Position numbers and translations under genes: made by a program
Part shown: one piece after another, positions 8,156-27,943 of the stretch
Position numbering within the stretch: position 1 is the stretch's first letter
Layout: each line of letters starts with the position of its first letter
The notes under the pieces: model-generated
What the model saw: only the letters and a program-made list of their open reading frames with translations
Databases searched by the model: none
What the model was told of the DNA's origin: nothing
From: Chloroflexota bacterium
GTDB lineage: Bacteria > Chloroflexota > UBA4733
Direction of reading: 5' to 3'
Length of the DNA stretch: 27,943 nucleotides
Assembly: GCA_025980355.1 (NCBI GenBank)
Contig: JAICXR010000001.1
Coordinates: 1 to 27,943, forward strand

Positions 8156-11050
8156 ATGGAGGTAACGGCAGCTCCGGCTTCGGCCGTCATCGGCGTTGCC
8201 GGCGTCCCGCCCCGGCCCTGGAGGGCCGTCGGCGCGCGGGTCGGCCTCGCCGCGAGCGCCGGGCCGGCGGTCGCGCTGACCGCCTTCGGGTTGCGCTGCT
8301 GGCTGCTGGGCGCGCCGAGCCTCTGGTATGACGAGGGCGTGAGCTGGTCGCTTGCCCGTCAGCCCCTGACGGCAATGCTCGCCCAACTGGCGCATGCCGA
8401 CTTCAATCCGCCGCTGTACATCGCGCTGCTGCACGGCTGGTTGGGGCCGGCCGGCGACAGCGAATACGCCTTGCGTTACCTGTCGGTCATCGCCGGAACC
8501 CTGGTGGCGCCGTTGTGCTGGGTCCTTGCTCGCCGCCTCTTCCGGTCCCGGGCGGCGGCGGCGACGGCGGCGACGCTGGCGGCGACGTCGGTGTTCCTGA
8601 TCGACTACAGCCAGGAGGCGCGTGGCTATGCCCTGGCCGCCGCCCTCGGCGTGCTGTCCGCCTACGCGCTGTTCCGCCTCCTGGGGGCGGCGACGCCCGC
8701 GATCGTGCAGCGCTGGTGGTGGGGCTACGTGCTGGCGACCGCCGCGGCGCTCTACACGCACTATGCCATGCTGCTGTTGATGCCGGCCCATCTGGTGCTC
8801 GTGGTGCAGCATCGCCGACGGTGGGCGGCGGTCGGCGCGGCCTGGCTGGCCTGCGCCGCGCTGTATCTGCCCTGGTTACCCTCCCTGGGCCGGCAGTTGG
8901 CGACCATGCGGGCGGTTCCGGACTTCTGGGTCGGAAGCATCGTCCCGACCCTGGCGCCGGAACGCGTGCTCGCCGCCGTCGCCCTCGCCCCCGGCGCCCT
9001 GTCTAAGCAGACGGGTCTGCTGCTGGCCGGCGGCGGTGCGGCGGTGGCCTTCCTGGCGCTGGCGGCGCTGCTCGGGCCGGCCCGGAGCAAGGCGGCCGCG
9101 CTTTTGCCGCTGCAACTGGTGTGCCTCCCGCTCATGGAGGCGGCGCTGCTGACCGCCATCTTCCCGAAATTCATTGACCGCTACCTACTGCCCATCGCGC
9201 CGTTCGCCTATGTCGGCGCTGCCGCGCTGGCAGCGCTCCTCCCCACTTCCGCGGTCGCGAGTTGCCGGTTTTCGGGGCGGTGGCGGCCGGCGTTGGGACG
9301 GGCGACCGCCGTCGGCGCCGGCCTGCTGACCGTCGCCAGCGCGGCCCACGCCCTGGCCCACGCGCCGCTGGGGGCGCAGGAGATCAAGGACGGCGATACA
9401 CGGGCCGCCGTCGGCTATATCAACGCGCACGCCATCCCCGGCGACGCGGTGTTGCTGGCGCAGGACACCGGCCCGGTCTTCTCCTACTACTATAACGGCG
9501 CGCTGGGTGGTCCGGGCCGCGGCTGGTTTGGCGTGGTGCCGGAGTTCAGCCGGGGCGACGACTTGCCGGCCCTCGCCGCCGCCCTGAACGGCGCCGCTAC
9601 CGGGCACTCCCGCCTCTGGGTGGTGCTCTGGCACACCGATTTTGCCGACCCGACGGATTATCTCCGCAACGCCCTCGACGTCGGGGCGACGCGGTTGCTC
9701 ACCTACACGGGGGCCACCGGCTACGAGTTGCGCCTCTACCAATTGCGCCCCAACAGCCATTTTTCGCCGCAGGCGTCACCCCTGCACCCGATGTCGGTGC
9801 GCTTCGGCCAGCACATCACCTTTCTCGGCGACGGCATCGAGGACGCTATCCTGCCGGCGGACGTGCCATTCGCCGTGCATACCTGGTTTCGGACCGACGC
9901 ACCGTTAGACCGCGATTACCAGGTGGTGCTACGCCTCGAACGCGACGGCCACGTCTGGAGCCAGATCGCCCTGCGTCCGTCGCTGTACGGCTACCCGGCG
10001 CAGCACTGGCTGCCGGGGATCGACGTGCCGGGGCGTCTGGACTTCAAGGTGGGCGCCGACGTCCCGCCCGCCGACTACCAGCTCACCCTCGCCGTCTACG
10101 ATCCGACCACCCAACAGGACCTGTCGGCGGTGGACGCGACGCGTGGCGCCATCGGCACGCGGGTCGTCCTCGGCACGGTGAAGGTGCTGCCCCCGCAACA
10201 GCCCGGCAAGCCGGCGCCGCCGGCACGCCTGCTCGGCCTCCCGGTCGATAAGGGCTTGGAACTCTGGGGCAGCGGCGCCATCCCGGCGCGCCTGCAACAG
10301 GGTGCCGCCCTGGAGCTGCCCCTGATCTGGCGGGCGACGGGCCAGCCCCAGGCGGACTACCGGGCACAGGTGGAGCTCGCGCCGCTCAGCACGTCGGCGC
10401 CGCCGATCGTGCTCGCCGCCGCCGCGCCGCCAGCACCGAGCCTCGGCACCCGAAGCTGGCCGGCGGGCGACACGTTCGAGGATATTCGGACCTTGCAACT
10501 GCCGCCCAATGCCCCGGTCGGGCCGGCGGCGCTGCAAATGCGTATCCGGAGGATCGACGGCGCCGGCAATGATCGGGTGATTCCCCTCGCCACCATCGTC
10601 GTTGACCCGCGCCCGCGCGACATGGCCGCTCCGGCGGACATCGGTACGCCGGTCGGCGCCCTTTTCGGCGACGCCGCGCTGCTGGCCGGCGTCCAGGTCG
10701 ACAGCCAGGCGGCGCAGCCCGGCGGGCAGGTGACCGTGACGCTCTTCTGGCAATGCCGGCTGCCGCTGGACCGCGACTACACCGTCTTCGTCCATCTGCT
10801 CGACGCCAATAATGCCATCGGCGGACGGCAGCACGACGGGCCGCCCGACGGCGGCGCCGACCCGACGACCAGTTGGGCGCCCAACCAGTGGATCACGGAC
10901 CGGCACGTCGTCCCCATCCCCGCCACGACCCCTCCGGGCGTCTACCGCCTCGAGGTCGGCCTCTATCGCCAGAACGGGGAGCAGTTCCTCCGCTTGCCGC
11001 TCGCCGCGGGCGGCGACGCGCTGATCGCCGGTACGGTGACGGTTCGTTGA
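8156..11050 (+). CDS. GT39/PMT-like (GT-C) membrane glycosyltransferase with three tandem C-terminal extracytoplasmic domains
   Basis: SLWYDEGVS acidic motif after TM1, PPLY..LLHGW, YSQEARGYAL, about 10 or more hydrophobic segments, then three repeats ending in xPPGxYxLxVxxY-like motifs. Confidence 0.85.
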   Translation: MEVTAAPASAVIGVAGVPPRPWRAVGARVGLAASAGPAVALTAFGLRCWLLGAPSLWYDEGVSWSLARQPLTAMLAQLAHADFNPPLYIALLHGWLGPAGDSEYALRYLSVIAGTLVAPLCWVLARRLFRSRAAAATAATLAATSVFLIDYSQEARGYALAAALGVLSAYALFRLLGAATPAIVQRWWWGYVLATAAALYTHYAMLLLMPAHLVLVVQHRRRWAAVGAAWLACAALYLPWLPSLGRQLATMRAVPDFWVGSIVPTLAPERVLAAVALAPGALSKQTGLLLAGGGAAVAFLALAALLGPARSKAAALLPLQLVCLPLMEAALLTAIFPKFIDRYLLPIAPFAYVGAAALAALLPTSAVASCRFSGRWRPALGRATAVGAGLLTVASAAHALAHAPLGAQEIKDGDTRAAVGYINAHAIPGDAVLLAQDTGPVFSYYYNGALGGPGRGWFGVVPEFSRGDDLPALAAALNGAATGHSRLWVVLWHTDFADPTDYLRNALDVGATRLLTYTGATGYELRLYQLRPNSHFSPQASPLHPMSVRFGQHITFLGDGIEDAILPADVPFAVHTWFRTDAPLDRDYQVVLRLERDGHVWSQIALRPSLYGYPAQHWLPGIDVPGRLDFKVGADVPPADYQLTLAVYDPTTQQDLSAVDATRGAIGTRVVLGTVKVLPPQQPGKPAPPARLLGLPVDKGLELWGSGAIPARLQQGAALELPLIWRATGQPQADYRAQVELAPLSTSAPPIVLAAAAPPAPSLGTRSWPAGDTFEDIRTLQLPPNAPVGPAALQMRIRRIDGAGNDRVIPLATIVVDPRPRDMAAPADIGTPVGALFGDAALLAGVQVDSQAAQPGGQVTVTLFWQCRLPLDRDYTVFVHLLDANNAIGGRQHDGPPDGGADPTTSWAPNQWITDRHVVPIPATTPPGVYRLEVGLYRQNGEQFLRLPLAAGGDALIAGTVTVR

Positions 11051-11067
11051 GGCGCCCGTCCTGGCCC

Positions 11068-11118: not shown

Positions 11119-11229
11119 CTGCACGTCCGCCCCGCCCGCGTCGATGCGGCGTCTCCCCAGCGGAGATGCTATTGTTGAAGATGGCGTCGTCGCGGCGCCG
11201 GTGGACGCGAGCGGGGAGAGCGGGCCTTG

Positions 11230-11715
11230 ATGGAAGACAGAGCGGTCGGCTTGGATGCCGAGCCGCCGGTCAACGAACAGGCGCGCCGGCTCAAGGCGAG
11301 TAGCCTGCTCTGGTTCATCAGCAGCCGCCCCTACGTGCCGATGGCCGACATACGGCGGCGCTTCGGCCTGGCGACGGAGACCGGTACCCTGTTGCACGAC
11401 GACGAAGGCCCCGTCCATATCGGCCTACCGCGCCAGGCGGCGGAAACGTTGCTCGATCTGAAGCGCAAGCAGAAGGTGGAGCTGCAGTACGACCTGGAAT
11501 ATGCCACGCGCATCGCCGTCGGGGCCTATCCGATCCGCATCCGCCTCGCCCCTCCCGCCCCCATCGGGCGCGGGCACCAGCAGGCGGTTCCCAACGAATC
11601 GTTCGCGGCTCCGCCCGAGGCCGGCGAACCGGCGGTCGTGGCCGAAGCCTCCCTGGCGGTCGTGTCGCGCACCGTTCGGCCCTTGCCGTCGGGCCAACGC
11701 CGTCGCCGCCGCTGA
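11230..11715 (+). CDS. Hypothetical protein (globular N-terminal region, Pro/Ala-rich tail ending RRRRR)
   Basis: Fills the gap between GT39 and trkA on the same strand, has GGAG upstream and an ordinary globular composition over the first ~105 aa. No family recognised. Confidence 0.75.
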   Translation: MEDRAVGLDAEPPVNEQARRLKASSLLWFISSRPYVPMADIRRRFGLATETGTLLHDDEGPVHIGLPRQAAETLLDLKRKQKVELQYDLEYATRIAVGAYPIRIRLAPPAPIGRGHQQAVPNESFAAPPEAGEPAVVAEASLAVVSRTVRPLPSGQRRRRR

Positions 11716-12940: not shown

Positions 12941-13612
12941 CTAATGCCACAGTCCGGCGGCGCCCAGCAGCGCCGCATAGCCGCCCAATGTCAGATACGT
13001 GCCATAGGCCGGCGCGTCGCCTAGCTTCGCCCGGCGCAACGCCACCAGGAAGAGCGACGCGACGCCGCCCAGGCAGACCCCGATGAAGACGGCGGTCAGG
13101 ATGCGTTCGGTCCCCACCATCAGCCCCATCAGGGCGGCGAGCTTCACGTCCCCGAGCCCCAACGCCGCCTGACGGAACACCAGCAAGCCCAACCCGTAAA
13201 AGGCCGCGAACAGCACGAGGCCGATGGCGCCCCCGGTCAAGGCGCTACGGAGCGAGAGATAGGCGGGGTGGGGGAGCGCAATCGCGGCGAGCACGGCGAG
13301 GAGGGCGAGCGGCGCCGTCCAGATGTCCAGGATGTAGCGCACGCGCAGGTCGACCGTGAAGATGACGGCCAGGGCGGCGGCCCAACCCGCCTGCACAGCG
13401 ACCACGGCCGTCAAGGGCCGGTTCCAGAAGAGGAGGAGCGCCGCCACCGCCACGGCCACGGCCAGCGCCGCCCCGCCGACCGGCGGCAACGTCGCCCCCG
13501 GTTCTTCCGGCTCCCGCCGGGCGATATAGGCGAGCAGCAGCCGGGTCGCGAGCAAGGCCGCGCCGCCCAGCCCGATCGCCAGCAGCACGCCGGCCAGCGG
13601 TGCAGTGCTCAC
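12941..13612 (-). CDS. A24 family prepilin peptidase (no N-terminal CxxC domain; TadV/CpaA-like)
   Basis: Multiple TM helices, first Asp in FTVDLRVRYILD, LGLGDVKL (GDxK) and PAYGTYL; GGAGG before GTG 13612. Confidence 0.85.
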   Translation of the reverse strand: MSTAPLAGVLLAIGLGGAALLATRLLLAYIARREPEEPGATLPPVGGAALAVAVAVAALLLFWNRPLTAVVAVQAGWAAALAVIFTVDLRVRYILDIWTAPLALLAVLAAIALPHPAYLSLRSALTGGAIGLVLFAAFYGLGLLVFRQAALGLGDVKLAALMGLMVGTERILTAVFIGVCLGGVASLFLVALRRAKLGDAPAYGTYLTLGGYAALLGAAGLWH

Positions 13613-15309: not shown

Positions 15310-17940
15310 TCAGGCGCGCACCAGGTCGTCGCGCAAGCTGCTCAACGCCGCCGGAACGCCGCCAGGGACGCTGCTGCTCCCGGTCGCCATACGCGGATTG
15401 CCCCCGCCGCCCCCGCCGCCGCTCCGCTTCGCCAGCTCCTTGACCAGGCGACCGGCGTCCTGACCGGCCTTCGTCAGGTCCGGCGAGACGGCAGCGAGCA
15501 ACTGGGTCCGGCCATTGCCAGGGGCGGCCAGTAGGACCACCACCGGTTGGAGACGGTCGAGGAGATCGTCGGCGAGCTGGCGTAGCCCGGCCGTTTGGTC
15601 GGCCCGCACCTGCTCTGCCACGACGCGGAAGCCGTTGGCCGCCACGGCGTGGCCGGCCAGGCGTTCCGCCTCCCGCTGCAGCTGCTCCCGTTCGGCGGCC
15701 TGCAGTTTCCGGCGCAGTTCCTCCAGGTCCTGCTGCAGCGCCTGCACCCGTTGCGGCAGCTCCGACGGGGCGGTCTTAAACTGGCGGGCGAGGTCGTCGA
15801 GCAGCCATGCCTGTTGCCGGGCGTAGGCGACGGCGCTGAGCCCGGTCAGCGCTTCGATCCGGCGCACGCCGGCGCCGATGCCGCTCTCGGCGACGATGAA
15901 GAAGGGGCCGATCTCGCCACTCTGCTGGACGTGGGTGCCGCCGCAGAGCTCCTTGCTGTAGCCGTCCACGGAGACCACGCGCACCATGTCGCCATATTTC
16001 TCCCCGAACAGGGCCATCGCCCCCTCGGCGCGCGCTTCCGCCAGCGGCTTGATGGCGGTGGTCACCGGCACGTCCAGCGTGATCTGCTCGTTGACGTCGC
16101 GCTCGACGGCCTGCAATTCCTCCGCCGCGAGGCGGGAACCGTGCGTGAAGTCGAAACTGAGGTGGTCGGGCGCCACCACGGAGCCGGCTTGCTCCACGTG
16201 CTCGCCCAGGTGCTCACGCAGGGCGCGGTGTAGCAGATGGGTCGCCGTATGGTTCCGTCGCGTGTCGGCGCGCCGCCGCCGGTCGACGACGGCCGTGACG
16301 GCGTCACCTTCGTGGAGCTCGCCACCCGCCAGCGTCCCCGTGTGGAGCACGACGCCGGACGGCAGCCGTTCCAGTTCTTCCACGTTGACGAGGGCGTCGC
16401 CGGCCCGCAGTTCGCCGGTGTCGGCGACCTGGCCGCCGCTCTGGACGTAGAACGGCGAGCGGTCGAGGATGACGGCGAGGCGCTTACCCGGCTCGACCCG
16501 CCCCACCGGCTGCCCGTCGCAGACGAGGCGCAGGACTGTCGCCTCCGTTTCCAGCTCGGTGTAGCCGGTGAACTCCGTCGGCGGCAGGGCGGCGATCGCG
16601 CCGGAGGCGGTCTCCCCCACGGCCCCCGTCGAGCGGCGGCGATAGTCGCGCTTGCCGCTCGCCACCTGGCGGGCCATCTCCGTCTCGAAGCCGGCGACAT
16701 CGACGCCGAGGTTCCGTTCGGCCGCCAGCTCCTGCACCACCTCCAGCGGCAGCCCCTGGCTGTCGTAGAGGCGGAAGACGCGTTCACCGGGGAGCACCCG
16801 GTCGCCCCGCCGCTCCACCTCGTGTGCCAGGCGCTCGAACGCCGCCATCCCGGCCTGTAATGTCGCGCTGAAGCGTTGTTCCTCGTCTGTCAGCACCTGC
16901 CGGATGCGCTCCGCGCGCTGGGGCAACTCCGGATAGGCAGCGCCGTAGATGCGGATCACGACGCTCGCCAAGTCGGCCAGAAAGGGCTCGCCGATATCCA
17001 GGAGCACGCCGTGGCGCACGGCCCGGCGGATCAGGCGGCGCAGCACGTAGCCGCGCCCTTCGTTGCCGGGGCGCACGTTGTCGGCCAGGAGGAAGGTGAC
17101 GCCGCGAAGGTGGTCGGCGATGATGCGCAGGGAGCGGTCGTGGCCGGCGTCGGCGCCGTAGGAAACGTGGGCGATCGCCGCGGCGCGGTCCAGGATCGGC
17201 CGGAAGCGGTCGGTCTCGTAGTTCGTGCGCACGTCTTGCAGGAGGCAGGCCATTCGGTCCAGCCCCATGCCGGTGTCCACGTTCGCCTTCGGCAGCGGAT
17301 GCAGGTTGCCGGCGGCGTCGCGGTTGTACTGCATGAACACGACGTTCCAGAACTCCACGAAGCGCCCGCAGTCGCAGTCCGGTCCGCAGGTCGGGCGTTG
17401 GCAGCCGACAGCCGGCCCCCGATCGTAGAACAGTTCGGTGTCCGGGCCGCAGGGGCCGATCGCGCCCTCCTCCGGCCACCAGTTCTTGGCGAGGGGGACG
17501 ATCCGCGCGTCCGGCAGGCCGATCCGCCGCCAGAGGCCGGGGGTGACGTCGTCGTCCGGGTGCACCGTCACCGAAATGCGGTCGCGCTCCAGGCCGAGGT
17601 CGCCGGTGGAGAGTTCCCAGGCATAGGCGACGGCATCCTCCTTGAAGTAGTCGCCGATCGACCAGTTGCCGAGCATGTCGAAGAAGGTGTTATGGATGTC
17701 GTCGCCCACCTCGTCGATGTCGGTGGTACGGAAGACCTTCTGGATCGAGGCCAGACGGCGGCGCGGCGGCTCGGCGTGGCCCAGCATATAGGGCAGAAAT
17801 TGGTCGACGCCGGCGGTCGTGAAGATCAGGCCGGACTCCTTGGGGGCGATGAGCGACGAACTGGGCACGATCAGATGTCCACGCTCGGCAAAGAAGCGCA
17901 GGAAGGTCTCGCGAATCTGATCGCCCGTTGCGCCCGCCAT
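15310..17940 (-). CDS. alaS: Alanine--tRNA ligase
   Basis: HNTFFDMLGNWSIGDYFK, VEFWNVVFMQY, VDTGMGLDR, ADHLR, NHTATHLL (HxxxH) and ELCGGTHV editing site. Confidence 0.98.
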   Translation of the reverse strand: MAGATGDQIRETFLRFFAERGHLIVPSSSLIAPKESGLIFTTAGVDQFLPYMLGHAEPPRRRLASIQKVFRTTDIDEVGDDIHNTFFDMLGNWSIGDYFKEDAVAYAWELSTGDLGLERDRISVTVHPDDDVTPGLWRRIGLPDARIVPLAKNWWPEEGAIGPCGPDTELFYDRGPAVGCQRPTCGPDCDCGRFVEFWNVVFMQYNRDAAGNLHPLPKANVDTGMGLDRMACLLQDVRTNYETDRFRPILDRAAAIAHVSYGADAGHDRSLRIIADHLRGVTFLLADNVRPGNEGRGYVLRRLIRRAVRHGVLLDIGEPFLADLASVVIRIYGAAYPELPQRAERIRQVLTDEEQRFSATLQAGMAAFERLAHEVERRGDRVLPGERVFRLYDSQGLPLEVVQELAAERNLGVDVAGFETEMARQVASGKRDYRRRSTGAVGETASGAIAALPPTEFTGYTELETEATVLRLVCDGQPVGRVEPGKRLAVILDRSPFYVQSGGQVADTGELRAGDALVNVEELERLPSGVVLHTGTLAGGELHEGDAVTAVVDRRRRADTRRNHTATHLLHRALREHLGEHVEQAGSVVAPDHLSFDFTHGSRLAAEELQAVERDVNEQITLDVPVTTAIKPLAEARAEGAMALFGEKYGDMVRVVSVDGYSKELCGGTHVQQSGEIGPFFIVAESGIGAGVRRIEALTGLSAVAYARQQAWLLDDLARQFKTAPSELPQRVQALQQDLEELRRKLQAAEREQLQREAERLAGHAVAANGFRVVAEQVRADQTAGLRQLADDLLDRLQPVVVLLAAPGNGRTQLLAAVSPDLTKAGQDAGRLVKELAKRSGGGGGGGNPRMATGSSSVPGGVPAALSSLRDDLVRA

Positions 17941-18315: not shown

Positions 18316-18321
18316 ACTGTA
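18316..18321 (-). promoter_or_regulatory. Candidate -10 (GG-TACAGT) for flp
   Basis: TACAGT in the 77-bp gap between the YfhO-like stop and the flp start. Confidence 0.4.
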
Positions 18322-18341
18322 CCGTGCGGTGGAGATCCTGC

Positions 18342-20612
18342 CTATGAGGTAGAGGTACCAGAGTAGCCCGGTACTTCTGGCGACTCGGTCGGCGTATTGC
18401 CGGGCCGCGACTGCTGGAGAAAAGCCACGACCGGTACCGCCAGCAGCACCGTGAGGAGCAGATACGCGGCGATCCCGGTGAGCAACATACCGACTTTGAT
18501 GCTCCACGGATCGAACGAGAAGACCACGGTATGCCGTCCGGCCGGGATCGCCACCGCCTGGATGGCATGGTCGGCGCGCAGGATTTCCGCCGGGCGGCCG
18601 TCGACCGTGGCCGTCCAACCGGGGTAGGCGGCGACGCTCCGCACGAGCAGCGCCGGCTGGTCGACCGTGGCCGTGACCACCGTCCGCTCCGGCGATACCC
18701 GCCGCTCCTGGATCTGTTGGTCGTGCTGGGGCAAGCTCGGGATCGCCAGGGCCGGGGCTCGATCCAGGACGACCTGTTGTCCGGGATCAAACGTGGGGGC
18801 GAGGACGGCGCTCAGCGAGGCATCGGCCGCCGGCAGGACCTGATACCGCCAGACCGCCCAGACATCCGGCAGCATATAGGAGAGGGCATAGGTGTTGACG
18901 CCGTGCTCGGTGTGCTGCAGGGTGTAGGGGCTGCCGAGCGTGCGGGTGGTCAGGAACTCGTGGACATCGAGGATCTGCCAGACGCGCCAGTAGTCCGTCG
19001 AGGTCAGCAGTTGATCGATGGCGCCGACCCGGAAGTCGTTGTAGCCCTGGTCGGTGGCCAGGCCGTAGTTCCCGAGGTCGTTGGCCGGGATGATCTGGTC
19101 GCCGTCCGTCACCACCCGGAACGGCTCTCGCAGGGAGCGCAGGTAGGCGATCGTCCCGGGCAACCCGTCGGCCGGGGCTGGGGGCGTCGGCGTGAGGTTA
19201 TTCCGCCAGTTGACGGCCATGCCGTCGATCCCCAGGAGCACGGCCAGCGCGAGTATGGGTAGGGAGCGAAGATAGGGGGGGCGGCGACTGCCGATCAGGC
19301 AGCCGAGGACGACGGCCACGGGCACGCCGCGCACCCAGAGCGGCGCATCGCGGGCAGCGGAGGCCAGGTGGTCGCCAGCGGCGTGGAGGAGCAGCGGTGC
19401 CGCGTCACCGGCGCAGGTGGCGAGCGTCGCCACGAACAGCAACCATCGCAGCGCGGGCCGGGCCTGGATACCCGCCGCTGCCAGGGCGACCAGCGCCGCG
19501 GTGGCAAAGCTCGTCAGGAAGATGGTGCGACTCTGGTCCCGAATGAGGCCGAAGCCGAGGTGCTCCATCAGGCCGTACACCGGCGTCTGGCCGCCCAGAC
19601 TCAGCAGTAGCGCCCCGACGGCGAGGCCGCACCAGAACCAGCCCTCGCGCTTCCGGGCCAGCCAGACGCCGCTCAGCGCCAGCACGACGCTGCCCGCCCC
19701 AAGCCAGAGGGCTGCCACATCGGCGTAATGCGGCACCACGAGGTTCGGCAGGGCCTGGATCAGAATGCCGGCGCTGGCGGCGGTGTCGGAGATAGCTATC
19801 CGGTTGGAGAGCGGGAAGAATTCCAGGGACGGTACCAGTTGGATCGCCGCCAGCCCGCCGGCCACCAGCGCCGCCAGGACCGCTTCGGCCCAGGAGCGGC
19901 GCAAGGTGCCATGGCGCAGACCGAGGAAGACTAAGTAGGCGACGGCGGCATCGACGATCAGCAGACAGGTCTGCGGATGGCCGGCCAGAAACGACAGGGC
20001 CAGGGCCAGCCCGCCGAGCATCGCCCAACGAAGCCGTTGCCGGCGCGTCGCCGCCGGATCGCCGAAGACATGGCGGACGGCCAGCAGGGCGAGCGGCAGC
20101 CAGGTACCCGACTCCAGGATATCCATCTGGTGCGGCGGATAGCTCGTGAGGTAGCCGCCGAAGGTGTAGACCAGCGTCGCGGTGAGTGCCGCCAGGCGCG
20201 AGCGGACCAGGTCACGGAAGAACAGGTAGGCGAGGGCAGCGGCAAGCAGGAAATCGATGACGACCCGCCATTCCATCCGCAAGAGCGTGACGCCACCCGC
20301 GCCAGCGGTCATGTCGAAGGCCAGGTCCATCGGGTAGAAGACGGCTGCCCCGGAGTCGGCCGCCAGCGGCTGGCCAGCATAGCTGTAGGGGTCCCAGAGC
20401 GGCAACTGCCCCGCCGCCCAGGAGCCGGCGGTGACGCTATCGGTCGCCTGTTCCTTCCAGGTGAAGTCGCCATTGACGTAATACTGACGGGCCGCCAGAT
20501 CCGGGGTGATGAGCCGCCAGAAGAACACCAGCACCAACAGCCAGACGAAAGCCAGCGCCCCGGCATCCCCGGCCCAACGTCGCGCCCTGTGGAGTGTCCG
20601 TGGCGTATCCAG
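18342..20612 (-). CDS. YfhO-like GT-C membrane protein (start uncertain: CTG 20612 proposed; track uses TTG 20537)
   Basis: GDF after TM1, GQLPLWDPYSYAGQPL..D, LSFLAGHPQ, many TM helices, and C-terminal YPGWTATVDG...QAVAIPAGRHTVVFSF plus a final TM. The frame is open upstream through RRWAGDAGALAFVWLL to a TGA at 20633-20631. Confidence 0.8.
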   Translation of the reverse strand: MDTPRTLHRARRWAGDAGALAFVWLLVLVFFWRLITPDLAARQYYVNGDFTWKEQATDSVTAGSWAAGQLPLWDPYSYAGQPLAADSGAAVFYPMDLAFDMTAGAGGVTLLRMEWRVVIDFLLAAALAYLFFRDLVRSRLAALTATLVYTFGGYLTSYPPHQMDILESGTWLPLALLAVRHVFGDPAATRRQRLRWAMLGGLALALSFLAGHPQTCLLIVDAAVAYLVFLGLRHGTLRRSWAEAVLAALVAGGLAAIQLVPSLEFFPLSNRIAISDTAASAGILIQALPNLVVPHYADVAALWLGAGSVVLALSGVWLARKREGWFWCGLAVGALLLSLGGQTPVYGLMEHLGFGLIRDQSRTIFLTSFATAALVALAAAGIQARPALRWLLFVATLATCAGDAAPLLLHAAGDHLASAARDAPLWVRGVPVAVVLGCLIGSRRPPYLRSLPILALAVLLGIDGMAVNWRNNLTPTPPAPADGLPGTIAYLRSLREPFRVVTDGDQIIPANDLGNYGLATDQGYNDFRVGAIDQLLTSTDYWRVWQILDVHEFLTTRTLGSPYTLQHTEHGVNTYALSYMLPDVWAVWRYQVLPAADASLSAVLAPTFDPGQQVVLDRAPALAIPSLPQHDQQIQERRVSPERTVVTATVDQPALLVRSVAAYPGWTATVDGRPAEILRADHAIQAVAIPAGRHTVVFSFDPWSIKVGMLLTGIAAYLLLTVLLAVPVVAFLQQSRPGNTPTESPEVPGYSGTSTS

Positions 20613-20735
20613 GGGGCGTCCCTCGTTCCCATCAGGCGGTCAGTCCGGCCCGCTGGAGCAGGCGCCGTGCCCTGATCATCAGGCTACCAGTGCTGTCACC
20701 GCCGTCGCCACTGGACATGTTCATCCCTGTCAAAA

Positions 20736-20768
20736 TCTTTACCTCCCCTGCCCGTTTCTTTACCTCCC
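20736..20768. repeat. 12-bp direct repeat TCTTTACCTCCC x2 (21-bp period) in the divergent intergenic region
   Basis: Exact copies at 20736-20747 and 20757-20768; reads GGGAGGTAAAGA on the minus strand. Confidence 0.8.
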
Positions 20769-20810
20769 GTACATAACTGCTTGGCTGCCGCAGTGGAGCG
20801 TGGCCTGGTC

Positions 20811-20838
20811 TTGCCGAGTCGTTGGCCTCGCGTATACT
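20811..20838 (+). promoter_or_regulatory. Candidate sigma-70 promoter for the large GT-C gene
   Basis: TTGCCG-N16-TATACT. Confidence 0.55.
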
Positions 20839-20894
20839 GAGCATCGGAATAGGCGGAATCTCCTGCGAATCGTCACGGAACGGGCGGGACATCA

Positions 20895-23800
20895 ATCGTT
20901 CGATCCTGGCGCAGCCTCAGAATTGCTCCTGGGTGGCGCGGCGCCGTTCCGCTCCTTCTGGCCTTCGCGCTGTGCCTGCCCGCGCTCTTTCCCCTGCTCT
21001 TGCCCGGCTTCATCGAAGGGCACGACGGCGTTGAGCACCTCTTCCGGGTACTGGCGCTGGCGACCGCCTGGCGCGAGTCGGGCGTCGTCGGCAACCTATT
21101 GCCCCGCTGGACACCGGATTTGGCGCTCGGCTTCGGCTACCCGCTGTTCGGCCTGTATTCGCCGCTGGCCTACGTCATCCCGGCGGCCCTGACGCTGCTC
21201 GGCGTCGCCCCGATCGTCGCCGTCAAGGTTGCGGTGGCGCTGGCCCTCCTGCTCGGCGGGTTGGGGGCCTTCCTCTGCCTGCGCCCACTGGCGGGAGCGA
21301 CGGCGGCCGTTATCGGTGCCGTGACCTACGTCTACGCGCCATATACGATGGCGAATGCCTTTGTGCGGCTCGACCTGGCGGAGCTGAGCGCCGGCAGTTG
21401 CGCCGCCCTCGCCCTGGCCGCCCTGCTCCGGCTCGACGCACCGGCGGGGGACGGCGCGGCAGGTCGCCGCGTCGTCCTGGCGGCCCTGGCGCTCGCCGCT
21501 ATCCCACTCTGCCACAACCTCAGCGCGCTCACCTTCCTGCCCCTCCTGGCGGCCGTCTGGTGCTGGCTCCTGGTGCGGGCCTGGGGGCACGCGAAGCCGG
21601 CGCAACGCCGCGCCGTGCTGCCGGTGCTCGCCGCCCCCCTGCTCGCGGCCGGCATCGCCGCCTTCTTCCTGCTGCCCGCCTGGCGCTGGCAGGCCTCGAC
21701 GCACCTGGCCCTGCTGGGCGGGGATCCCGCCTTCCTGGCGAAACTGCTGCACCCGCTCGCCCTCTGGCGGGCCCAGTTCGCCTTGCCCGGCTGGGGCTGG
21801 TTTGGCGCCGGCAGTGCCTGGTGGAACTTCAGCGTGGCGCCGAGCCCGGCTGGTGAGTTCGGCGCCGGCCCCAGCACGCTCGCCTGGCTGGCGGTGCCGG
21901 TGTCGCTGCTCCTCCTCCGGCGGCAATGCCGTCTGCGCGGCCTCGCCCTGGCGCTCGTGATCGCCTGCCTGATATCCGTACTGCTGCTGACCTCGTTGGC
22001 ACTGCCGTTCTGGCGGGCGTTCCCCCACCTCACCCTCCTCCAGTTCCCCTGGCGCTTCGCCGGGCCGCTCTGCCTGGCAACGGCGCTGCTGGTGGGGCTG
22101 TTGCTCGCGCCGATTCCGGGACGCCGTCGCCTTTTGCCGGCGGCCGCTTGCCTGACGCTGGCGGTCGTCCCGGCGCTCCTGTACCTGCGCCCGGACCCGA
22201 TCAGCTTGCCCACCGGTGCCATCACCTGGCCGGCTCAGCTGCGCCGCGAACTGATCGGCGGCTATGGCACCACCGGCAGCGGCCTCTTCCTACCGCGCTG
22301 GGTGCCGGGCCAGTCGCCACAGGTACCGGTGTTCGCCGCGCCGACGCCCGGCACCACCAGCCTCCAGCTCACCGAGCTTACCGGCCGCGCCGACGCCTTC
22401 GCCGCGAGCTACCAGGCGCAGCAATCGGCGACGCTCACGCTCGGCGCCTGGTATTTCCCCGGTTGGCAGGTGCGAATTGACGGGCAAGCCGCGCCGGTCG
22501 CGCCGGACACGAGCGGGCTGGTGCGGCTCGCCCTGCCGGCGGGCACGCACCGCTTGACTGTCGCTCGCGGACCGACCGGCGCCGAACTTGCCGGCGGCGT
22601 CATCACCCTGGCGTCGGCGCTGGTCGCCATCGTCCTGCTGCTCGGTCCCGGTCGCCCGGCGCTCATCGTCGCGGGCATCACGACGCTCGTCGGCGTTGCC
22701 CTGTCGGGGGCGATTCCCCGCTTCTCCTTTTCGATGCTTGGCGACGCCACTGCTGTCTGGTCGATCCCGGCGGCGTCAACGCCCCCGCAACCGTTGCAAG
22801 CGGCCGCCTGGCGGATCGTCCGTTCCCCGGTCTGGGGGCCGACCCCCGTCGTGGAGGTCGCCTGGCTCGCCCAACAGGCGCCGGTGGGCGACGTACAGCC
22901 AACGATCCAGGTGCGGTCTCTGGCCGGCGAGATCCTGGCCACCACGACCCGTGGCCCGCGCCTGAGTACGGTCAGCACCACGGGCTGGCCGGCCGGGACC
23001 CTGGTCTTCGATCACCTCACCATCCCCTTGCCGCCGGCCGTCGATGGCGTCTGCGCCGGCACCTACGGCCTTGCCCTGGCGATGGGAACGGCCGACGCAG
23101 CGTCGACCGCCCTGGGCCAGGTCGCCCTTCCCTGCGCGCCCGCCGCTGTCCCGACCGTGCCACAGGTCGTTGCGCCGGTCCTGCATGGCCTCGGCGCCGG
23201 GCGGTTGCCCACCGTGCAGCCCGGTGCGGCCGTCGATCTCGATCTGTCCTTGCGCGTAGCGGGGCCGACGGCGACCGATGAAGTGCTGGCCTTCCAACTG
23301 TTGGACGGGCGCGGCCAGCCGGTGGCGCAGGTGCAGAGCTACGGCAACATTGACCTGCGCTTCAGCACACTCTGGACCGCCGGCCAGGTCGTGCCCTATC
23401 ACCTGCACCTGCCGCTGCCCAGTACTCTGACCACCGGCGTCTACACCCTGAGTCTGCAACTCTTCTCCCCGGCGGGCGGCGCTTTGCAGCCGCTGCTGGC
23501 CCCGACCGGCCAGATCGGGCCGAAGCTGACCCTGGCGAGCGTGAAGGTTTCGCCGGCCCGAGTCTCCAGCGCCATGCCCCTGCTGGCTCGCTTCGGCCCA
23601 AGCATCGGCCTCCTGGCTCCCACTGGGCCGCCGCGGCCGGAATTGACGGCACAGCCGGGCACCACGGTCAGCATTCCGCTACGCTGGCTGGCCGTCGCCG
23701 CTCCAAACGCCGACGACACTGTGTTCGTCCACCTGGTCGACGCCAACGGGAAGCTGGCGGCTCAGGCGGACGGGCCGCCGCTGGCTGGCCGTTATCCCAC

Positions 23801-24002
23801 CTCCGCCTGGGACGCCGGTGAGCTGATCGACGACACCCGTCAACTGCCGCTGCCGGCCAACCTGCCACCCGGCCGGTATACCGTCCAGGTCGGCTGGTAT
23901 CTGCCTAGCACCGGCACCCGCCTGCCTGTGTCGCCGCCGGTGCCGGCTGATGCGGTAACCGTGGCGAATGTCGTGGTCCGTGCCGTCGCCGGGGCCAGTT
24001 GA
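20895..24002 (+). CDS. Large GT-C-type membrane protein (PTPS-related/YfhO-like core) with three C-terminal extracytoplasmic domains; start uncertain (ATC 20895 proposed; track uses TTG 21000)
   Basis: GHDGVEHLFR after TM1, PRWTPDL..GFGYPLFGLYSPL, YVYAPY, LQFPWRF, YfhO-like YFPGWQVRIDG...LPAGTH, then three repeats, the last being DTVFVHLVD...DGPPLAGRYPTSAW...LPPGRYTVQVGWY. Confidence 0.82.
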   Translation: MVRSWRSLRIAPGWRGAVPLLLAFALCLPALFPLLLPGFIEGHDGVEHLFRVLALATAWRESGVVGNLLPRWTPDLALGFGYPLFGLYSPLAYVIPAALTLLGVAPIVAVKVAVALALLLGGLGAFLCLRPLAGATAAVIGAVTYVYAPYTMANAFVRLDLAELSAGSCAALALAALLRLDAPAGDGAAGRRVVLAALALAAIPLCHNLSALTFLPLLAAVWCWLLVRAWGHAKPAQRRAVLPVLAAPLLAAGIAAFFLLPAWRWQASTHLALLGGDPAFLAKLLHPLALWRAQFALPGWGWFGAGSAWWNFSVAPSPAGEFGAGPSTLAWLAVPVSLLLLRRQCRLRGLALALVIACLISVLLLTSLALPFWRAFPHLTLLQFPWRFAGPLCLATALLVGLLLAPIPGRRRLLPAAACLTLAVVPALLYLRPDPISLPTGAITWPAQLRRELIGGYGTTGSGLFLPRWVPGQSPQVPVFAAPTPGTTSLQLTELTGRADAFAASYQAQQSATLTLGAWYFPGWQVRIDGQAAPVAPDTSGLVRLALPAGTHRLTVARGPTGAELAGGVITLASALVAIVLLLGPGRPALIVAGITTLVGVALSGAIPRFSFSMLGDATAVWSIPAASTPPQPLQAAAWRIVRSPVWGPTPVVEVAWLAQQAPVGDVQPTIQVRSLAGEILATTTRGPRLSTVSTTGWPAGTLVFDHLTIPLPPAVDGVCAGTYGLALAMGTADAASTALGQVALPCAPAAVPTVPQVVAPVLHGLGAGRLPTVQPGAAVDLDLSLRVAGPTATDEVLAFQLLDGRGQPVAQVQSYGNIDLRFSTLWTAGQVVPYHLHLPLPSTLTTGVYTLSLQLFSPAGGALQPLLAPTGQIGPKLTLASVKVSPARVSSAMPLLARFGPSIGLLAPTGPPRPELTAQPGTTVSIPLRWLAVAAPNADDTVFVHLVDANGKLAAQADGPPLAGRYPTSAWDAGELIDDTRQLPLPANLPPGRYTVQVGWYLPSTGTRLPVSPPVPADAVTVANVVVRAVAGAS

Positions 24003-24053: not shown

Positions 24054-25442
24054 TCAGTGGATGGCGCCCTGGACGCCGGGCAAGGCCGGGAACGCCGCGC
24101 TGGGGAAGTCGAAGTCCAGCAATTTGGCGATGGTCGCCGCGATCTGCTCGGTGTGGACCACCGGATTCCGCGCACCGTGACCGTGCACGGCGCCGCCGGT
24201 GACGATCATGGGTACCGCCTGATCGCTGGGGTCAAGACCGCCGTGCTCTGCTCGCTTCGGGTCGTGGACGTTGCTGTCGTAGCAGTAGCCGGCGATCGGC
24301 AGCAAGGCGAAGTCCGGTGTTCGATCCGCCGGCGCCGCGCCCAATGCCACGAAGTCCTGCTGCGTCAGGATGCGTCGAATGGCGAACCGATTCGCAGCCG
24401 CGGGCGTTGAGAGGGCGGCGACCGCCGCTGCCGTCTGGGAAGGATCGCTGAGCCAGACATAATCGGCGTTGTCGGCCGTCTGTTGCACCAGGGAGATCGG
24501 CACGGCCTGTTGGCCAAGGAATGTCTGGACGGAAGCCGGCGAGATGAAGCTGCAGCCATTGGCCGCACTGACATCATTCTGGACGCAATCCGGTGGATTC
24601 GGACGGAGCGGCGTATTGCCGTGATCCCCGGTGATGATGAGCACCGTCTGGTCCCAGGCGCCGCTGGCCTGCAACGCCGTCACCAGACGCTGGACCTCGT
24701 TGTCCTCGAAGCCGATCGCCTGGTCCGTCGCTGCCGACGACACGCCGCCAAACTTCTGCGCCGAGGAGACGGCCTGCACGTAGTAGCCGGCGATGGCCGG
24801 AGCGGCGGGACCGGTCAAGGAGTTGATCAGCGACGTGAAATTCGCGTCGTCGTATCGCTCAAAGCACTGGTAGTCGAGGACATCCGGGCAGATAACTTTC
24901 AGGTTCGGCGTTTCCAGGCCGGTGATGCCCGGCCCGGCTGCCGGCGTGCCGTTGAGAAAGGCATACGCCGGATCCTTGGCGATGAACATCGACGTGAGGC
25001 CGGCGCTAGTGGCCGCCTGGAAGACCGACGGCATCCGGTTATAGTCTTGCGCCGTCGTCCCCGGCGCCAGGATGTTCTTATACTTCAGGCGGATCACCTG
25101 CTGGTAGTGCCGATCATAGAACGTGTCGTACAACAGTCCCGTGGCCGTCGGCTGGTTGCCGGTGAACATATCGGCATTCCCCGGCACCGAGTCGCCGGGG
25201 AAATCGGCCACCGCATTGACATAGTCGAGGCCCTGGCTCGCGAGCCGGGAGATCGTTGGCGCGACCGCCGGCGTGTACAGTTCCCGATGCCCACCGTCCA
25301 TGGTCAGAATGACGACGTGTTGGACGCGGTCGTGGCGCGCCGACGCCGGGACCGTACTATCCGCCTGGGCGCCGCCGGACAATAACGGCAACATCAAGAT
25401 CGCCCCCGCCGTCAGCACCCCGCTGAGCTTCCTCCAGATCAC
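24054..25442 (-). CDS. Secreted alkaline phosphatase superfamily protein (nucleotide pyrophosphatase/phosphodiesterase-like)
   Basis: Sec-type signal MIWRKL...GAQA|DS from GTG 25442 after GGAGG. VVILTMDG, FPGDSVPG (Ser at the NPP Thr position), IITGDHG and AEHGG metal-ligand motifs. Confidence 0.85.
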   Translation of the reverse strand: MIWRKLSGVLTAGAILMLPLLSGGAQADSTVPASARHDRVQHVVILTMDGGHRELYTPAVAPTISRLASQGLDYVNAVADFPGDSVPGNADMFTGNQPTATGLLYDTFYDRHYQQVIRLKYKNILAPGTTAQDYNRMPSVFQAATSAGLTSMFIAKDPAYAFLNGTPAAGPGITGLETPNLKVICPDVLDYQCFERYDDANFTSLINSLTGPAAPAIAGYYVQAVSSAQKFGGVSSAATDQAIGFEDNEVQRLVTALQASGAWDQTVLIITGDHGNTPLRPNPPDCVQNDVSAANGCSFISPASVQTFLGQQAVPISLVQQTADNADYVWLSDPSQTAAAVAALSTPAAANRFAIRRILTQQDFVALGAAPADRTPDFALLPIAGYCYDSNVHDPKRAEHGGLDPSDQAVPMIVTGGAVHGHGARNPVVHTEQIAATIAKLLDFDFPSAAFPALPGVQGAIH

Positions 25443-25550
25443 TGCTTCCCTCCCCCATTTCCAGTTCTTCTGCCGCAGACCGGCCACCGTGGTCCGGGCC
25501 CCGCTGCTTACCCTGCGGCTGCTCCAGGGCGATCAGCCGCGCGGGCCGGC

Positions 25551-25616: not shown

Positions 25617-27485
25617 CTACGTGCCAACGGACACGGTCGCAATCGGGGCGAGGCCGCTGCCAACGCCGGGAACCACCAGGCGGGGGCCCCCGCTGGACGG
25701 GTAGACGGCGACCGCCAGCGTATACCGACCGGCCAGCAACGTGGCCGGCAGGTGCAGGGTATGGGGATCGGGGATCGTCTCCCCCGGCAGCCAGCCGGTG
25801 GTGGGCGCCCGGCCGTCCTGGGGCACGGCGTCCAGTTGGGCGGCCAACCGACCTGCTGGGTTGAGCAATTGCACGCTCACCGTCTCCCCGCTCGGCGTCG
25901 GCGCGTTGGCAGTCCAGAAGAGGACGACCTGCCAGTCTTGCCCCGACACCGGATCGGTCGGCGTCAGTTCCGCGCCGGTCAAGCGCATGACACCGCCGAA
26001 CGTCAGGTGCAGCGCGACGTTGGGACGCCAGGGGGCGAACTCGATGACGTGGAAGCCGTTGGCCACCTGTCCCAGCGCCTGCAAGTGGCGATTGCACCAG
26101 GCCAGCACCGCGTGCCGGCTATCCCAGGCGCCGATGTCGTCCGGGATCAACCAGACCTCCCGCTTGCCGGCGGTGAGCCGGCTCAGGTCGGCGTTCAACG
26201 CCGTCGGGCTTTGGTCCTGCTGCGCCGGCTCGATGGCCATCGGCGCCGCCACGTCGCTACGTTGGGCGTAGTAGCGGACCACCGGGTCCAGGTGATTGAT
26301 GATGACGATATCCGAGGCGGTGGCGTGGCCGGCGAGGTAGTCCCCGAGCGCGGTGTAGGCGTGGCCGCGTCCGTCGGTCGGGTAAAAATACAACGACCAG
26401 AGTGCCGGGAGCAACGGTAGGGCGACCGCGGCGACCGCCACGGCGCCGGCCAGTGTCGCCAGGCGCGACCGCAGTCGCCACCACACCGCCGGCAGCGCCA
26501 GGAGGAGATAGAATGGCGGTGAGGCTTCGATCAGGTAGCGCACATCGAAGATCGGCCGCGTCCGCGAGCCGTACCAGATCGCGCCGATCGGTAGCACTAG
26601 CCAGAGCAAGAGCAGCAACAGGCCGAACCGGCCTGGGCGCAGCCGAGCGAGCGCCACGCAGCCCAGGATCAATGCCGCGGCATAGACCGGCAGCAGCGGG
26701 GTGGCGAACTGCTGCGGCAGATCCCAGCCGAGAGCGAAGGTGCGCACCGCCGCCCGCGCCGCGTCGCCCAGGCTTGGCGAGCCGGCGTTGCCGTGGTATG
26801 TCGTGAGCGTTTGCCAGGCGTAGACGACCCACGGTACGTACAGCAGTGCCACGAGGGCCTGCGCAGCGACCCAGAGGCGCAGCCCCCGTCCTTTCTGCGC
26901 CGCAAGCACCACGACCGCGAACAGATTCACCAGCACGAGCACATAGATGCTGTAGTAGTGGGTGTAGAGCGCGAGGAGCATGGTCAGCACATAGCCCAGC
27001 GCCGCCTGGCGGCTGGGCCGGCGATCGAACAGCAGCCGCCAGGCCCAGTAGACGGCGGCCGTGACGGAGGCGGTCGCCAGCGTGTACATGCGCGCGTCCT
27101 GGGCGTTCCAGACGTGGTAGGGGGCGAGCGCCAGCAGCAGCGCGGCGACGGCGCCGACGAGCGGCCCGGCCAGCCGGCGCGCCAGAACGTAGAGTAGGGC
27201 CACGCCCAAGGCGTCGCCAGCGGTGGAGAGCCAGCGCAGCGCGTAGGCGCCGTTGCCGGCGATGGGTATCCACGTATGCAGCAGCAGGTAGAACAGCGGC
27301 GGATGCGGCTCGCCCTGTGCCAGCGTGCCGATCACCTGACCGAGCGGCGCCGTCACGTAGTTAATGCCGAACACTTCGTCGCCCCGGAAGTCGTAAAAGC
27401 TGAGGTGCCAGCAGCGCAGCAGCCAGGCGGTGAATAGCACCGTCAGCGGCGGGGCGAGCCGGCACATCTGGTCACCGCGTTTCAT
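25617..27485 (-). CDS. GT39/PMT-like (GT-C) membrane glycosyltransferase with one C-terminal extracytoplasmic domain
   Basis: DFRGDEVFG, EPHPPLFYLLLH, WNAQDARMYTL, LYTHYY and RYLI motifs; C-terminal QLLNPAGRLAAQLDAVP...WLPGETIPD...AGRYTL. ATGA overlap with the upstream stop. Confidence 0.87.
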   Translation of the reverse strand: MKRGDQMCRLAPPLTVLFTAWLLRCWHLSFYDFRGDEVFGINYVTAPLGQVIGTLAQGEPHPPLFYLLLHTWIPIAGNGAYALRWLSTAGDALGVALLYVLARRLAGPLVGAVAALLLALAPYHVWNAQDARMYTLATASVTAAVYWAWRLLFDRRPSRQAALGYVLTMLLALYTHYYSIYVLVLVNLFAVVVLAAQKGRGLRLWVAAQALVALLYVPWVVYAWQTLTTYHGNAGSPSLGDAARAAVRTFALGWDLPQQFATPLLPVYAAALILGCVALARLRPGRFGLLLLLLWLVLPIGAIWYGSRTRPIFDVRYLIEASPPFYLLLALPAVWWRLRSRLATLAGAVAVAAVALPLLPALWSLYFYPTDGRGHAYTALGDYLAGHATASDIVIINHLDPVVRYYAQRSDVAAPMAIEPAQQDQSPTALNADLSRLTAGKREVWLIPDDIGAWDSRHAVLAWCNRHLQALGQVANGFHVIEFAPWRPNVALHLTFGGVMRLTGAELTPTDPVSGQDWQVVLFWTANAPTPSGETVSVQLLNPAGRLAAQLDAVPQDGRAPTTGWLPGETIPDPHTLHLPATLLAGRYTLAVAVYPSSGGPRLVVPGVGSGLAPIATVSVGT

Positions 27486-27943
27486 CGCGATGACTGGCGG
27501 CCGCGATGGACGTTGGACCCGACGTGCTGGGCGAACGTGGCAAGCGCCAGGACCATGCCCAGCGCGGCGAGCGCCATCCCCAGGCGCAAACTGGGCTGCT
27601 GGTAGCGCAGGGCGATCGTGTGATCGCCCGCCGGCAAGGCGACCGCCATCAGCGCCGCGTCGGCGTGATACAGCGACGTCGGGCGTCCATCGATGGTCGC
27701 CTTCCAGCCCCGGACGTAGGGCTGGCTGATCACCAGCAGCGCGTTGTCCGTGGTGGACGCCGAGAGCAGCAGGTCGCCGGGGGCGGTGCGGAGCCAGGTC
27801 TCGTGCTGGCTGCGGGGTGGGCTGGGACCGGCGATGGCGAGGTCCGGCGTCCCTTCCACAACGGCGGCCGTCCCCGGCTGCGGAAGGCCCAGCGTCATTT
27901 GCTGCGCCTGGGCGGCGGACGTGGCGAGTCGGAGGTCGCGTAC
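27482..27943 (-). CDS. YfhO-like membrane protein, C-terminal part (partial, begins beyond window end)
   Basis: LLVISQPYVRGWKATIDG...MAVALPAGDHTIALRY plus a final TM; frame open to position 27943. Confidence 0.85.
   Translation of the reverse strand, partial: VRDLRLATSAAQAQQMTLGLPQPGTAAVVEGTPDLAIAGPSPPRSQHETWLRTAPGDLLLSASTTDNALLVISQPYVRGWKATIDGRPTSLYHADAALMAVALPAGDHTIALRYQQPSLRLGMALAALGMVLALATFAQHVGSNVHRGRQSSR

Follow-up and report, generated by a model that had tools for sequence, protein, structure and literature searches.

Do five predicted membrane glycosyltransferases encoded around a small pilin gene form a single machine, or are they neighbours with separate tasks? This question is raised by a contig of a metagenome-assembled Chloroflexota genome (JAICXR010000001.1 of assembly GCA_025980355.1; contig C323 of genome G000 in our numbering), the whole of which, positions 1-27943, is the window analysed here. 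The genome consists of 605 contigs with a total of 3.63 Mb, an 81% completeness and a G+C content of ~70%, and the names of its homologues assign it to Chloroflexota. A first-pass annotation had pointed to two PMT-like genes, two YfhO-like genes and one hybrid gene in the window, together with flp, a prepilin peptidase gene and the gene of a secreted phosphodiesterase, and had read them as a multi-enzyme assembly line built around Flp. All of these genes were recovered, at or near the coordinates given for them, and the five enzymes (PMT2_A, PMT2_B, YfhO_A, YfhO_B and the hybrid, Hyb) are supported as GT-C-type glycosyltransferases by the agreement of Pfam, homologues and predicted folds. By contrast, the assembly line itself is weakly supported.

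Family assignments, gene order and the pattern of conservation point to a different reading, to which we would give slightly better than an even chance: in this uncultured, soil-type Chloroflexota, a large GT-C expansion particular to the lineage would be represented in the window by several independent members, serving as separate envelope-glycosylation modules, with flp as a bystander. In this model, GT2 enzymes encoded elsewhere in the genome would make a polyprenyl-phosphate-sugar donor, GtrA-type proteins would flip it, and each GT-C enzyme is predicted to pass the sugar on to a glycoconjugate of the envelope on the outer side of the membrane, with envelope glycolipids, glycopolymers or lipoproteins as the likely acceptors. 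Two of the enzymes, YfhO_B and PMT2_B, would work within one operon, next to which Hyb would be transcribed divergently; YfhO_A and the phosphodiesterase (phosphatase) gene would be recent insertions; and flp and the A24 peptidase gene would be bystanders that form part of an alaS-ruvX-mltG housekeeping block. The characterised YfhO and PMT_2 enzymes use C55-P-sugars to modify teichoic acids, wall polysaccharides and Ser/Thr-rich proteins (PMC8035078; 10.1101/2024.05.05.592596).

Genes were called from a list of open reading frames (ORFs) and from Pfam and NCBIfam scans of the window, and comparisons were made with three congeners (G001, G002 and G003) and two further relatives (G004 and G005, the latter related at the family level).

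Five GT-C-type enzymes

Two of the proteins match PMT_2 (GT39/GT83-like). PMT2_A (8156-11050, + strand; 964 residues) reaches 36.0 bits with PF13231, for which the cut-off is 26.1, carries a YDEG motif after the first transmembrane (TM) helix and consists of an N-terminal TM domain followed by ~450 residues of C-terminal extracytoplasmic repeat modules. PMT2_B (25617-27485, - strand; 622 residues) is a marginal match to the same profile (27.4 bits against 26.1), with an RGDE motif after the first helix and one C-terminal module; its best NCBIfam match, far below the cut-off, is the mycobacterial MT1671 mannosyltransferase model (NF052499, E 1.9e-9, residues 64-449). When both proteins were compared with the PDB sequences using phmmer, nothing was found at E <= 1, and their placing among the GT-C enzymes is a prediction made from Pfam.

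YfhO_A (18342-20537, - strand; a listed ORF of 731 residues) and YfhO_B (27482-27943, - strand; the C-terminal 153 residues of a gene that is cut by the contig end) match PF09586 with 55.2 and 52.2 bits, respectively, against a cut-off of 28.5. In both cases the match is limited to the C-terminal profile positions 753-835; the full-length homologues of YfhO_A all have PF09586 and are named as YfhO family members. Hyb (20895-24002, + strand, with ATC 20895, ATT 20922 or TTG 21000 as the start) is of a PTPS_related/YfhO type. It has no direct Pfam match, PF10131 (PTPS_related) being absent even at E <= 1, and would belong to PTPS_related by transitive homology only, as its homologues at 28-33% identity do have PF10131. 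PTPS_related is a member of the GT-C clan (PMC7801869). The Hyb sequence comprises a GT-C core of ~560 residues with a beta-sandwich and a terminal TM helix, and then ~440 residues of repeat modules; because the Hyb family profile aligns in full length with that of YfhO_A (hhalign probability 99.9, E 7e-31), Hyb can be described as a YfhO-type core to which these modules are added. The best NCBIfam matches of YfhO_A, YfhO_B and Hyb are PgfM1 or PgfM2, but these matches are confined to the beta-sandwich and TM part at the C-terminus, with scores far below the cut-offs.

Predicted structures lead to the same assignment. AlphaFold models of YfhO_A and of the N-terminal domain of Hyb, made from 67- and 58-sequence alignments, were obtained with mean predicted local distance difference test scores (pLDDT) of 91.8 and 86.8 and predicted template modelling scores (pTM) of 0.91 and 0.90, respectively. 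A Foldseek search with both models returned GT-C enzymes exclusively at E <= 0.001 (ArnT, AftD, STT3, AglB, AftA and Emb), while PglB and Pmt4 appeared just above that threshold; ArnT, AftD, AglB and STT3 were the top folds for YfhO_A. For Hyb, VIA-align gave Z scores of 21.9 with Pmt4 (root-mean-square deviation 3.7 A over 353 residues), 20.1 with Pmt1-Pmt2, 19.6 with STT3 and 16.6 with ArnT. Acidic residues follow the first TM helix in both families (D44, nearly invariant in the Hyb family; D24 and D61, invariant in the YfhO_A family), and these D/E residues are predicted to face the outside of the membrane. Taken together, the proteins add new members, from a phylum that has been little studied, to known GT-C families.

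C-terminal modules of ~110 residues are common to PMT2_A (~9800-11050), Hyb (~22800-24002) and PMT2_B (25617 to ~26100), with cross-hits at 35-45% identity. The sole Pfam hint for them is a weak Wzt_C-like match, and an Atlas search with those of Hyb returned only unnamed Chloroflexota clusters. One congener (G002) has an extra gene built of the same modules, located between its 162-residue-protein gene and PMT2_A (L032, G002:C389, ~4260-5513, - strand). These beta-sandwich modules probably help to hold the acceptor.

Copy number, clustering and donor genes

The five genes belong to a numerous group, as the same genome contains 22 PMT_2 matches, 4 YfhO Pfam matches, 7 matches to YfhO_A and two further Hyb-like ORFs. 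With ~30 GT-C genes in total, i.e., one per ~120 kb, only ~0.23 would be expected in 27.9 kb, where five are found (Poisson P ~4e-6). The clustering of paralogues is real, yet by itself it is no proof of joint function.

As the first-pass annotation had stated, neither GT2 nor GtrA genes occur in the window, and none is present on the contig that continues it (C598, see below), so the three components of a classical locus (GT2, flippase and GT-C) are not encoded together here. Elsewhere in the genome there are 11 GT2 matches, and GtrA matches on C122 and, weakly, on C271. On another contig (G000:C484:4537-7078), two GT2 genes are directly followed by a PMT_2 gene, an arrangement that resembles the classical module of GT2 and GT-C genes.

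Gene order within the genus

An assembly line would be expected to keep its genes together in relatives. Within the genus the order is indeed kept, but no conserved co-location was found beyond the genus level. G001 and G002 keep the complete gene order of the window from tilS to YfhO_B, with flp beside alaS and Hyb beside flp. The order flp-Hyb-PMT2_B-YfhO_B thus recurs in these two congeners and, in part, in G003, which keeps at the site the genes from PMT2_A to alaS, a degenerate flp, PMT2_B and YfhO_B; Hyb lies elsewhere in that genome, and neither Hyb nor the A24 gene was found at this site. The G003 copy of flp beside alaS is divergent and ends early (...VFTGP*; L033, G003:C149, ~9150-9350, - strand), while the Flp orthologues at the same place in G001 and G002 are 83-85% identical. 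Orthologues of PMT2_A (58-75% identity, at the same position) and PMT2_B (57-79%, beside YfhO_B) are found in all three congeners. The syntenic 28 kb also takes in, however, tilS, hpt, dtxR, trkA, mltG, ruvX and alaS, and the housekeeping genes are 80-90% identical. As these are equally syntenic, the conservation of the 28 kb is to be attributed to close kinship and not to selection for a system.

Moreover, some of the proposed components are absent from the site in the relatives. YfhO_A was not found there in any of the three congeners, and its orthologues (57-63% identity), known from G001, G003 and G004, are on other contigs and are not accompanied there by any of these genes; the Hyb-YfhO_A-flp arrangement is repeated only in a Logan contig (L099), with orthologues at 71-72% identity. 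Judging from this distribution, the YfhO_A gene between flp and Hyb is a recent insertion, restricted to this species-level clade.

The same applies to the phosphodiesterase gene, AP (24054-25487, - strand; 477 residues), whose product is of the alkaline-phosphatase superfamily (NPP/Phosphodiest; PF01663, 70.7 bits), has TMDG, DHG and EHGG motifs and, from its signal-peptide-like N-terminus, is predicted to be secreted. No orthologue was found in the five relatives G001-G005. The only close homologue, 96% identical, has the same arrangement in its own strain, and an exhaustive HMMER search returned only a few near-full-length relatives, with at most 49% identity (the nearest at 49% and 37%). 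In the two contexts of AP homologues that were examined there were no GT-C genes, and AP was ruled out as a system component in view of its rare relatives and of these two GT-C-free contexts. From the same comparisons, the AP gene was inserted between Hyb and PMT2_B recently, at the species level. YfhO_A and AP, which make up two of the six components proposed, would consequently be recent insertions, as they are absent from the site in relatives.

The A24 (TadV-like) prepilin peptidase gene (12941-13612, - strand; 223 residues; PF01478, E 1.2e-11), in turn, shares the strand of alaS-ruvX-mltG and comes after them, ~4.5 kb from flp, and is conserved at the site in G001 and G002. The proposal of one multi-enzyme line around Flp, the peptidase and the phosphodiesterase is not supported by these observations, since the synteny reflects kinship, YfhO_A and AP were inserted and A24 stands in a housekeeping block.

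The acyltransferase-YfhO_B-PMT2_B operon and its acceptor

Evidence of joint function exists for a single unit, a translationally coupled operon formed by an acyltransferase gene, YfhO_B and PMT2_B. YfhO_B overlaps the PMT2_B start by 4 nt. The window ends at 27943 together with the contig, which leaves nothing beyond that point, where a look for GT2 and GtrA genes had been suggested; another contig of the same genome, C598 (L105, positions 1-3839), continues the window and holds the N-terminus of yfhO_B (residues 1-312 of the orthologue). There, a PatA-like acyltransferase gene (1204-2097, - strand; 297 residues) precedes yfhO_B on the same strand and faces a divergent gene for a Big_13/FlgD_ig protein (~2293-3456, + strand) with the lipobox LLAAC. 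In relatives a FUR gene comes after Big_13; the FUR gene of this genome is on contig C29. The order acyltransferase-YfhO_B-PMT2_B is present in G001, G002 and G003 and, judging from C598, would be the same in our genome. At the family level, G005 keeps FUR, Big_13, the acyltransferase and YfhO, with a 4-nt overlap between the last two, and unrelated genes come after them.

The pairing of YfhO with PMT_2 is found at other places too: there is a second YfhO->PMT_2 tandem in each of G001, G002, G003 and our genome, and one in each of G004 and G005. For more distant YfhO homologues, the neighbouring genes (PMT_2, Wzy_C, GT2, GT4, methyltransferase or deacetylase) form clusters of a polysaccharide type. 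The best family match of the acyltransferase is the phosphatidylinositol-mannoside acyltransferase model PatA (NF005919), with 125 bits, which is double what any lipid A acyltransferase model reaches (61 bits for lipid A lauroyltransferase). As the operon faces a lipoprotein gene and includes an acyltransferase, its acceptor would be a glycolipid or lipoglycan, or a lipoprotein, and not a pilin; it is on one of these that the operon probably acts.

It could also be proposed that the enzymes serve general extracytoplasmic protein O-glycosylation of a PMT- or Pgf-like kind, with secreted proteins and lipoproteins, possibly including the Big_13 lipoprotein, as substrates. The closest structures to Hyb are Pmt4 and Pmt1-Pmt2 (Z 20-22) and oligosaccharyltransferases, although the Z scores within the GT-C families are too close to tell the type of acceptor. 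The DE motifs of the PMT_2 proteins fit this proposal, as do the streptococcal YfhO homologues that modify membrane-associated proteins (10.1101/2024.05.05.592596). In addition, the lipobox-bearing, Ig-like protein encoded opposite the operon is conserved down to the family level, but it lacks a Ser/Thr-rich disordered region. The acyltransferase of the operon better suits a lipid acceptor, and ~30 paralogues would seem more than a general system needs. On balance, we regard general protein O-glycosylation as unlikely, though it fares best among the alternatives.

A more specific idea is that the operon, together with inositol-1-phosphate synthase, builds an acylated lipoglycan of the phosphatidylinositol mannoside (PIM)/lipomannan (LM) kind in this Chloroflexota lineage, with the YfhO and PMT_2 enzymes in the roles of the actinobacterial PimE-, Mpt- and Rv1635c-type enzymes. 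The synthase (PF01658) is encoded in our genome (G000:C293:6660-6986) and in all three congeners, and each of these genomes has two to four PatA-like acyltransferase matches. If true, this would be a lipoglycan pathway assembled independently outside Actinobacteria. We consider it a long shot on the present sequence comparisons, and, because a canonical PIM operon was not found, it should be taken as a lead and not as a finding.

The flp gene and the question of pilin glycosylation

Flp (18082-18243, - strand; 53 residues; PF04964, 42 bits, E 7.9e-11) has a G/LVEYAL processing motif and a mature form of 37 residues, with several Ser/Thr residues and no Ser/Thr-rich disordered region. Tad ATPase and platform genes, which a tad/flp locus would contain, are not among the annotated ORFs of the window; matches to T2SSE (tad-type ATPase) are on contigs C20 and C370. 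Contrary to what the first-pass annotation had assumed, Flp is not a lone pilin, as a 74%-identical copy is encoded on C179 (L035, 2676-2834, - strand), between an ABC-transporter binding-protein gene and aroA. A Clp-type AAA+ ATPase is also encoded nearby, and no tad or GT-C genes were found on this 5.4-kb contig.

Pilin glycosylation is possible, with flp and Hyb as neighbours in two congeners, but it has no support outside the genus. In its dedicated form, once A24 has cleaved Flp, Hyb and/or YfhO_A would attach O-linked sugars to Ser/Thr residues of the short C-terminal stretch of the mature pilin, by analogy with the pilin-adjacent enzymes TfpW, TfpO or PglL. In favour of this, Hyb is the immediate neighbour of flp in G001 and G002, YfhO_A and Hyb both adjoin flp in the window and in L099, and, by our estimate, the chance of a GT-C neighbour for a given gene is only a few percent. 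Furthermore, mature Flp offers several Ser/Thr residues, and YfhO-family enzymes can modify proteins of the same cluster, as in the Streptococcus mutans Pgf system (10.1101/2024.05.05.592596). Nevertheless, the adjacency is limited to one genus in which the whole 28 kb is syntenic; the flp paralogue has no GT-C neighbour; and in G003, where flp is degenerate and Hyb lies elsewhere, PMT2_B and YfhO_B are still in place. The Caulobacter Tad pilus structure, moreover, is without glycan density (PMC10710030).

A broader sample of flp sites gives the same picture. PF04964 matches were collected in 151 Chloroflexota genomes, and 60 flp sites were taken from 40 genomes of other genera. The ORFs within 6 kb on each side were screened by phmmer with ~140 GT-C queries, and ten TM-rich neighbours were spot-checked with Pfam. 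A GT-C gene was detected at a single site (a PMT_2 gene, 3.4 kb from flp) and at none of the remaining 59; the remaining TM-rich neighbours proved to be MFS transporters or could be assigned to no family. About 23 of the 60 sites lie beside a CpaF-type ATPase gene and the rest are orphans, these being rough counts from a CpaF screen that included shadow frames. Conversely, no called Flp_Fap (PF04964) gene was found in the neighbourhood of Hyb homologues at 53%, 41% and 33% identity, and one of these homologues is encoded among three consecutive genes for large membrane proteins, of which one is weakly PMT-like. The flp genes of Chloroflexota are often orphans among housekeeping genes and are not generally linked to GT-C genes, and a linkage of glycosyltransferase and pilin, which pilin-specific glycosylation would maintain across lineages, is seen only within this genus. 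We consequently judge a dedicated glycosylation of Flp improbable, and of the interpretation first given to the locus, the GT-C identity, the genus-level order and the absence of GT2 and GtrA from the window stand, while a single Flp-centred system is not supported.

A potential N-glycosylation sequon was set aside as evidence. The C-terminal FSNIS of Flp includes N-I-S, which is kept in six copies; however, F-x-x-I-S-x-x-L endings are common among Flp pilins generally, and the G003 copy differs, with N-V-S at a different place and a truncated end.

Several points do weigh against separate modules with flp as a bystander, and against the role given to the operon. The end of YfhO_A lies 98 bp upstream of flp, with both genes on one strand, which makes their co-transcription possible; the adjacency of flp and Hyb is kept in two of the three congeners; and the phmmer and Pfam screen near flp may miss very divergent GT-C genes. 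As for the operon, the PatA score of its acyltransferase (125 bits) is below the NF005919 cut-off of 209 bits, and outside the family the acyltransferase homologues (at most 34% identity) are not beside the listed YfhO matches. A PIM-type operon was also looked for at a second PatA-like gene (G001:C30) and rejected, as neither PimA nor PgsA is beside it; its neighbours are helicase, MaoC and MerR genes.

The reading of several independent modules matters beyond this contig. Soils and sediments harbour abundant Chloroflexota, about whose envelope chemistry little is known and whose genomes contain dozens of GT-C genes that are still uncharacterised. The analysis separates genes that travel together (the YfhO-PMT_2 pairs, one of them with a PatA-like acyltransferase) from accidental neighbours (flp, the A24 peptidase gene and the phosphatase gene). 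Thus, the search for the acceptor is narrowed, the claim of a pilin-glycosylation machine appears weakly founded, and a testable glycolipid/lipoglycan lead remains.

Start codons of YfhO_A and Hyb

YfhO_A and Hyb are divergent genes, and in each the coding sequence of the conserved first TM helix precedes the first ATG, GTG or TTG, which for YfhO_A is TTG 20537. No canonical start was found between the preceding stop and this helix in either gene (20537-20640 on the - strand for YfhO_A; 20850-21000 on the + strand for Hyb), while their orthologues have ATG or GTG at the corresponding start. Among the non-canonical candidates in frame (CTG, ATC 20895 and ATT 20922), ATC 20895 as the start of Hyb is plausible but unproven, and the missing canonical starts may possibly reflect either non-canonical initiation or early decay.

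A decaying cluster, in which YfhO_A and Hyb would have lost their start codons, would no longer be made in full length and would leave the five-enzyme set partly non-functional, agrees with the position of the first TM helix and with the canonical starts of the orthologues, but seems improbable with frames that stay open for 731-1035 codons, full-length frames in relatives at 89-99% identity and the in-frame CTG, ATC and ATT.

Other genes of the window

The window begins with the genes for a sulfatase and a 2-hydroxyacid dehydrogenase, tilS, hpt, ridA and a gene without assignment, followed by dtxR (- strand). In the middle, PMT2_A (+ strand) is followed by the gene of a 162-residue protein and two trkA genes, and then by the A24 peptidase, mltG, ruvX and alaS genes, these last four on the - strand. 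The right-hand part contains, in order, flp (-), YfhO_A (-), Hyb (+), AP (-), PMT2_B (-) and the 3' end of YfhO_B (-). The 162-residue protein (11227-11715, + strand), encoded between PMT2_A and the trkA pair, has no match in Pfam or NCBIfam, and its counterparts at the same position in the three congeners are 63-80% identical. An Rfam scan of the window returned no family at the gathering score, and, for promoters and terminators, a scan of 17800-21100 picked up nothing better than weak matches to the consensus.

Comparison with known systems

Among type IVa pili, pilin-adjacent enzymes include the GT-C arabinosyltransferase TfpW and the O-oligosaccharyltransferases TfpO/PilO and PglL. The window resembles these systems in having a gene of GT-C fold directly beside a pilin gene, but differs in that the pilin is of the Flp (type IVc) kind, no Wzy_C domain was detected and the adjacency is limited to one genus. 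In the Pgf cluster of S. mutans (PgfS, PgfE, PgfM1 and PgfM2), two YfhO-type GT-C genes stand beside the genes of surface-protein (adhesin) substrates, whereas here there is no GT-A or epimerase gene and the candidate substrate is a mature pilin of 37 residues.

The actinobacterial pathway for PIM, LM and lipoarabinomannan (PatA; PimE, MptA/B and Rv1635c/MT1671) is similar in several respects, as a PatA-like acyltransferase is in an operon with GT-C enzymes, the best NCBIfam match of PMT2_B is the MT1671 model and inositol-1-phosphate synthase is encoded in the genome. However, all of the matches are well below the equivalog cut-offs, no PimA/PgsA1 neighbour was found, and the GT-C families are YfhO and PMT_2 and not GT87 or the MptA type.

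Finally, the Gram-positive systems that combine a CsbB/GtrB GT2, a GtcA/GtrA flippase and a YfhO or PMT_2 enzyme (PMC8035078, PMC5836110) use the same two GT-C families as those found here. They are also alike in the active-site acidic residues predicted outside the membrane, in the large extracytoplasmic domains and in the presence of GT2 and GtrA in the genome, and distant YfhO homologues do pair with a GT2 gene. By contrast, GT2 and GtrA are outside the locus here, which has a YfhO-PMT_2 tandem with an acyltransferase in place of GT2-GT-C pairs, and the number of paralogues (~30) is far higher.

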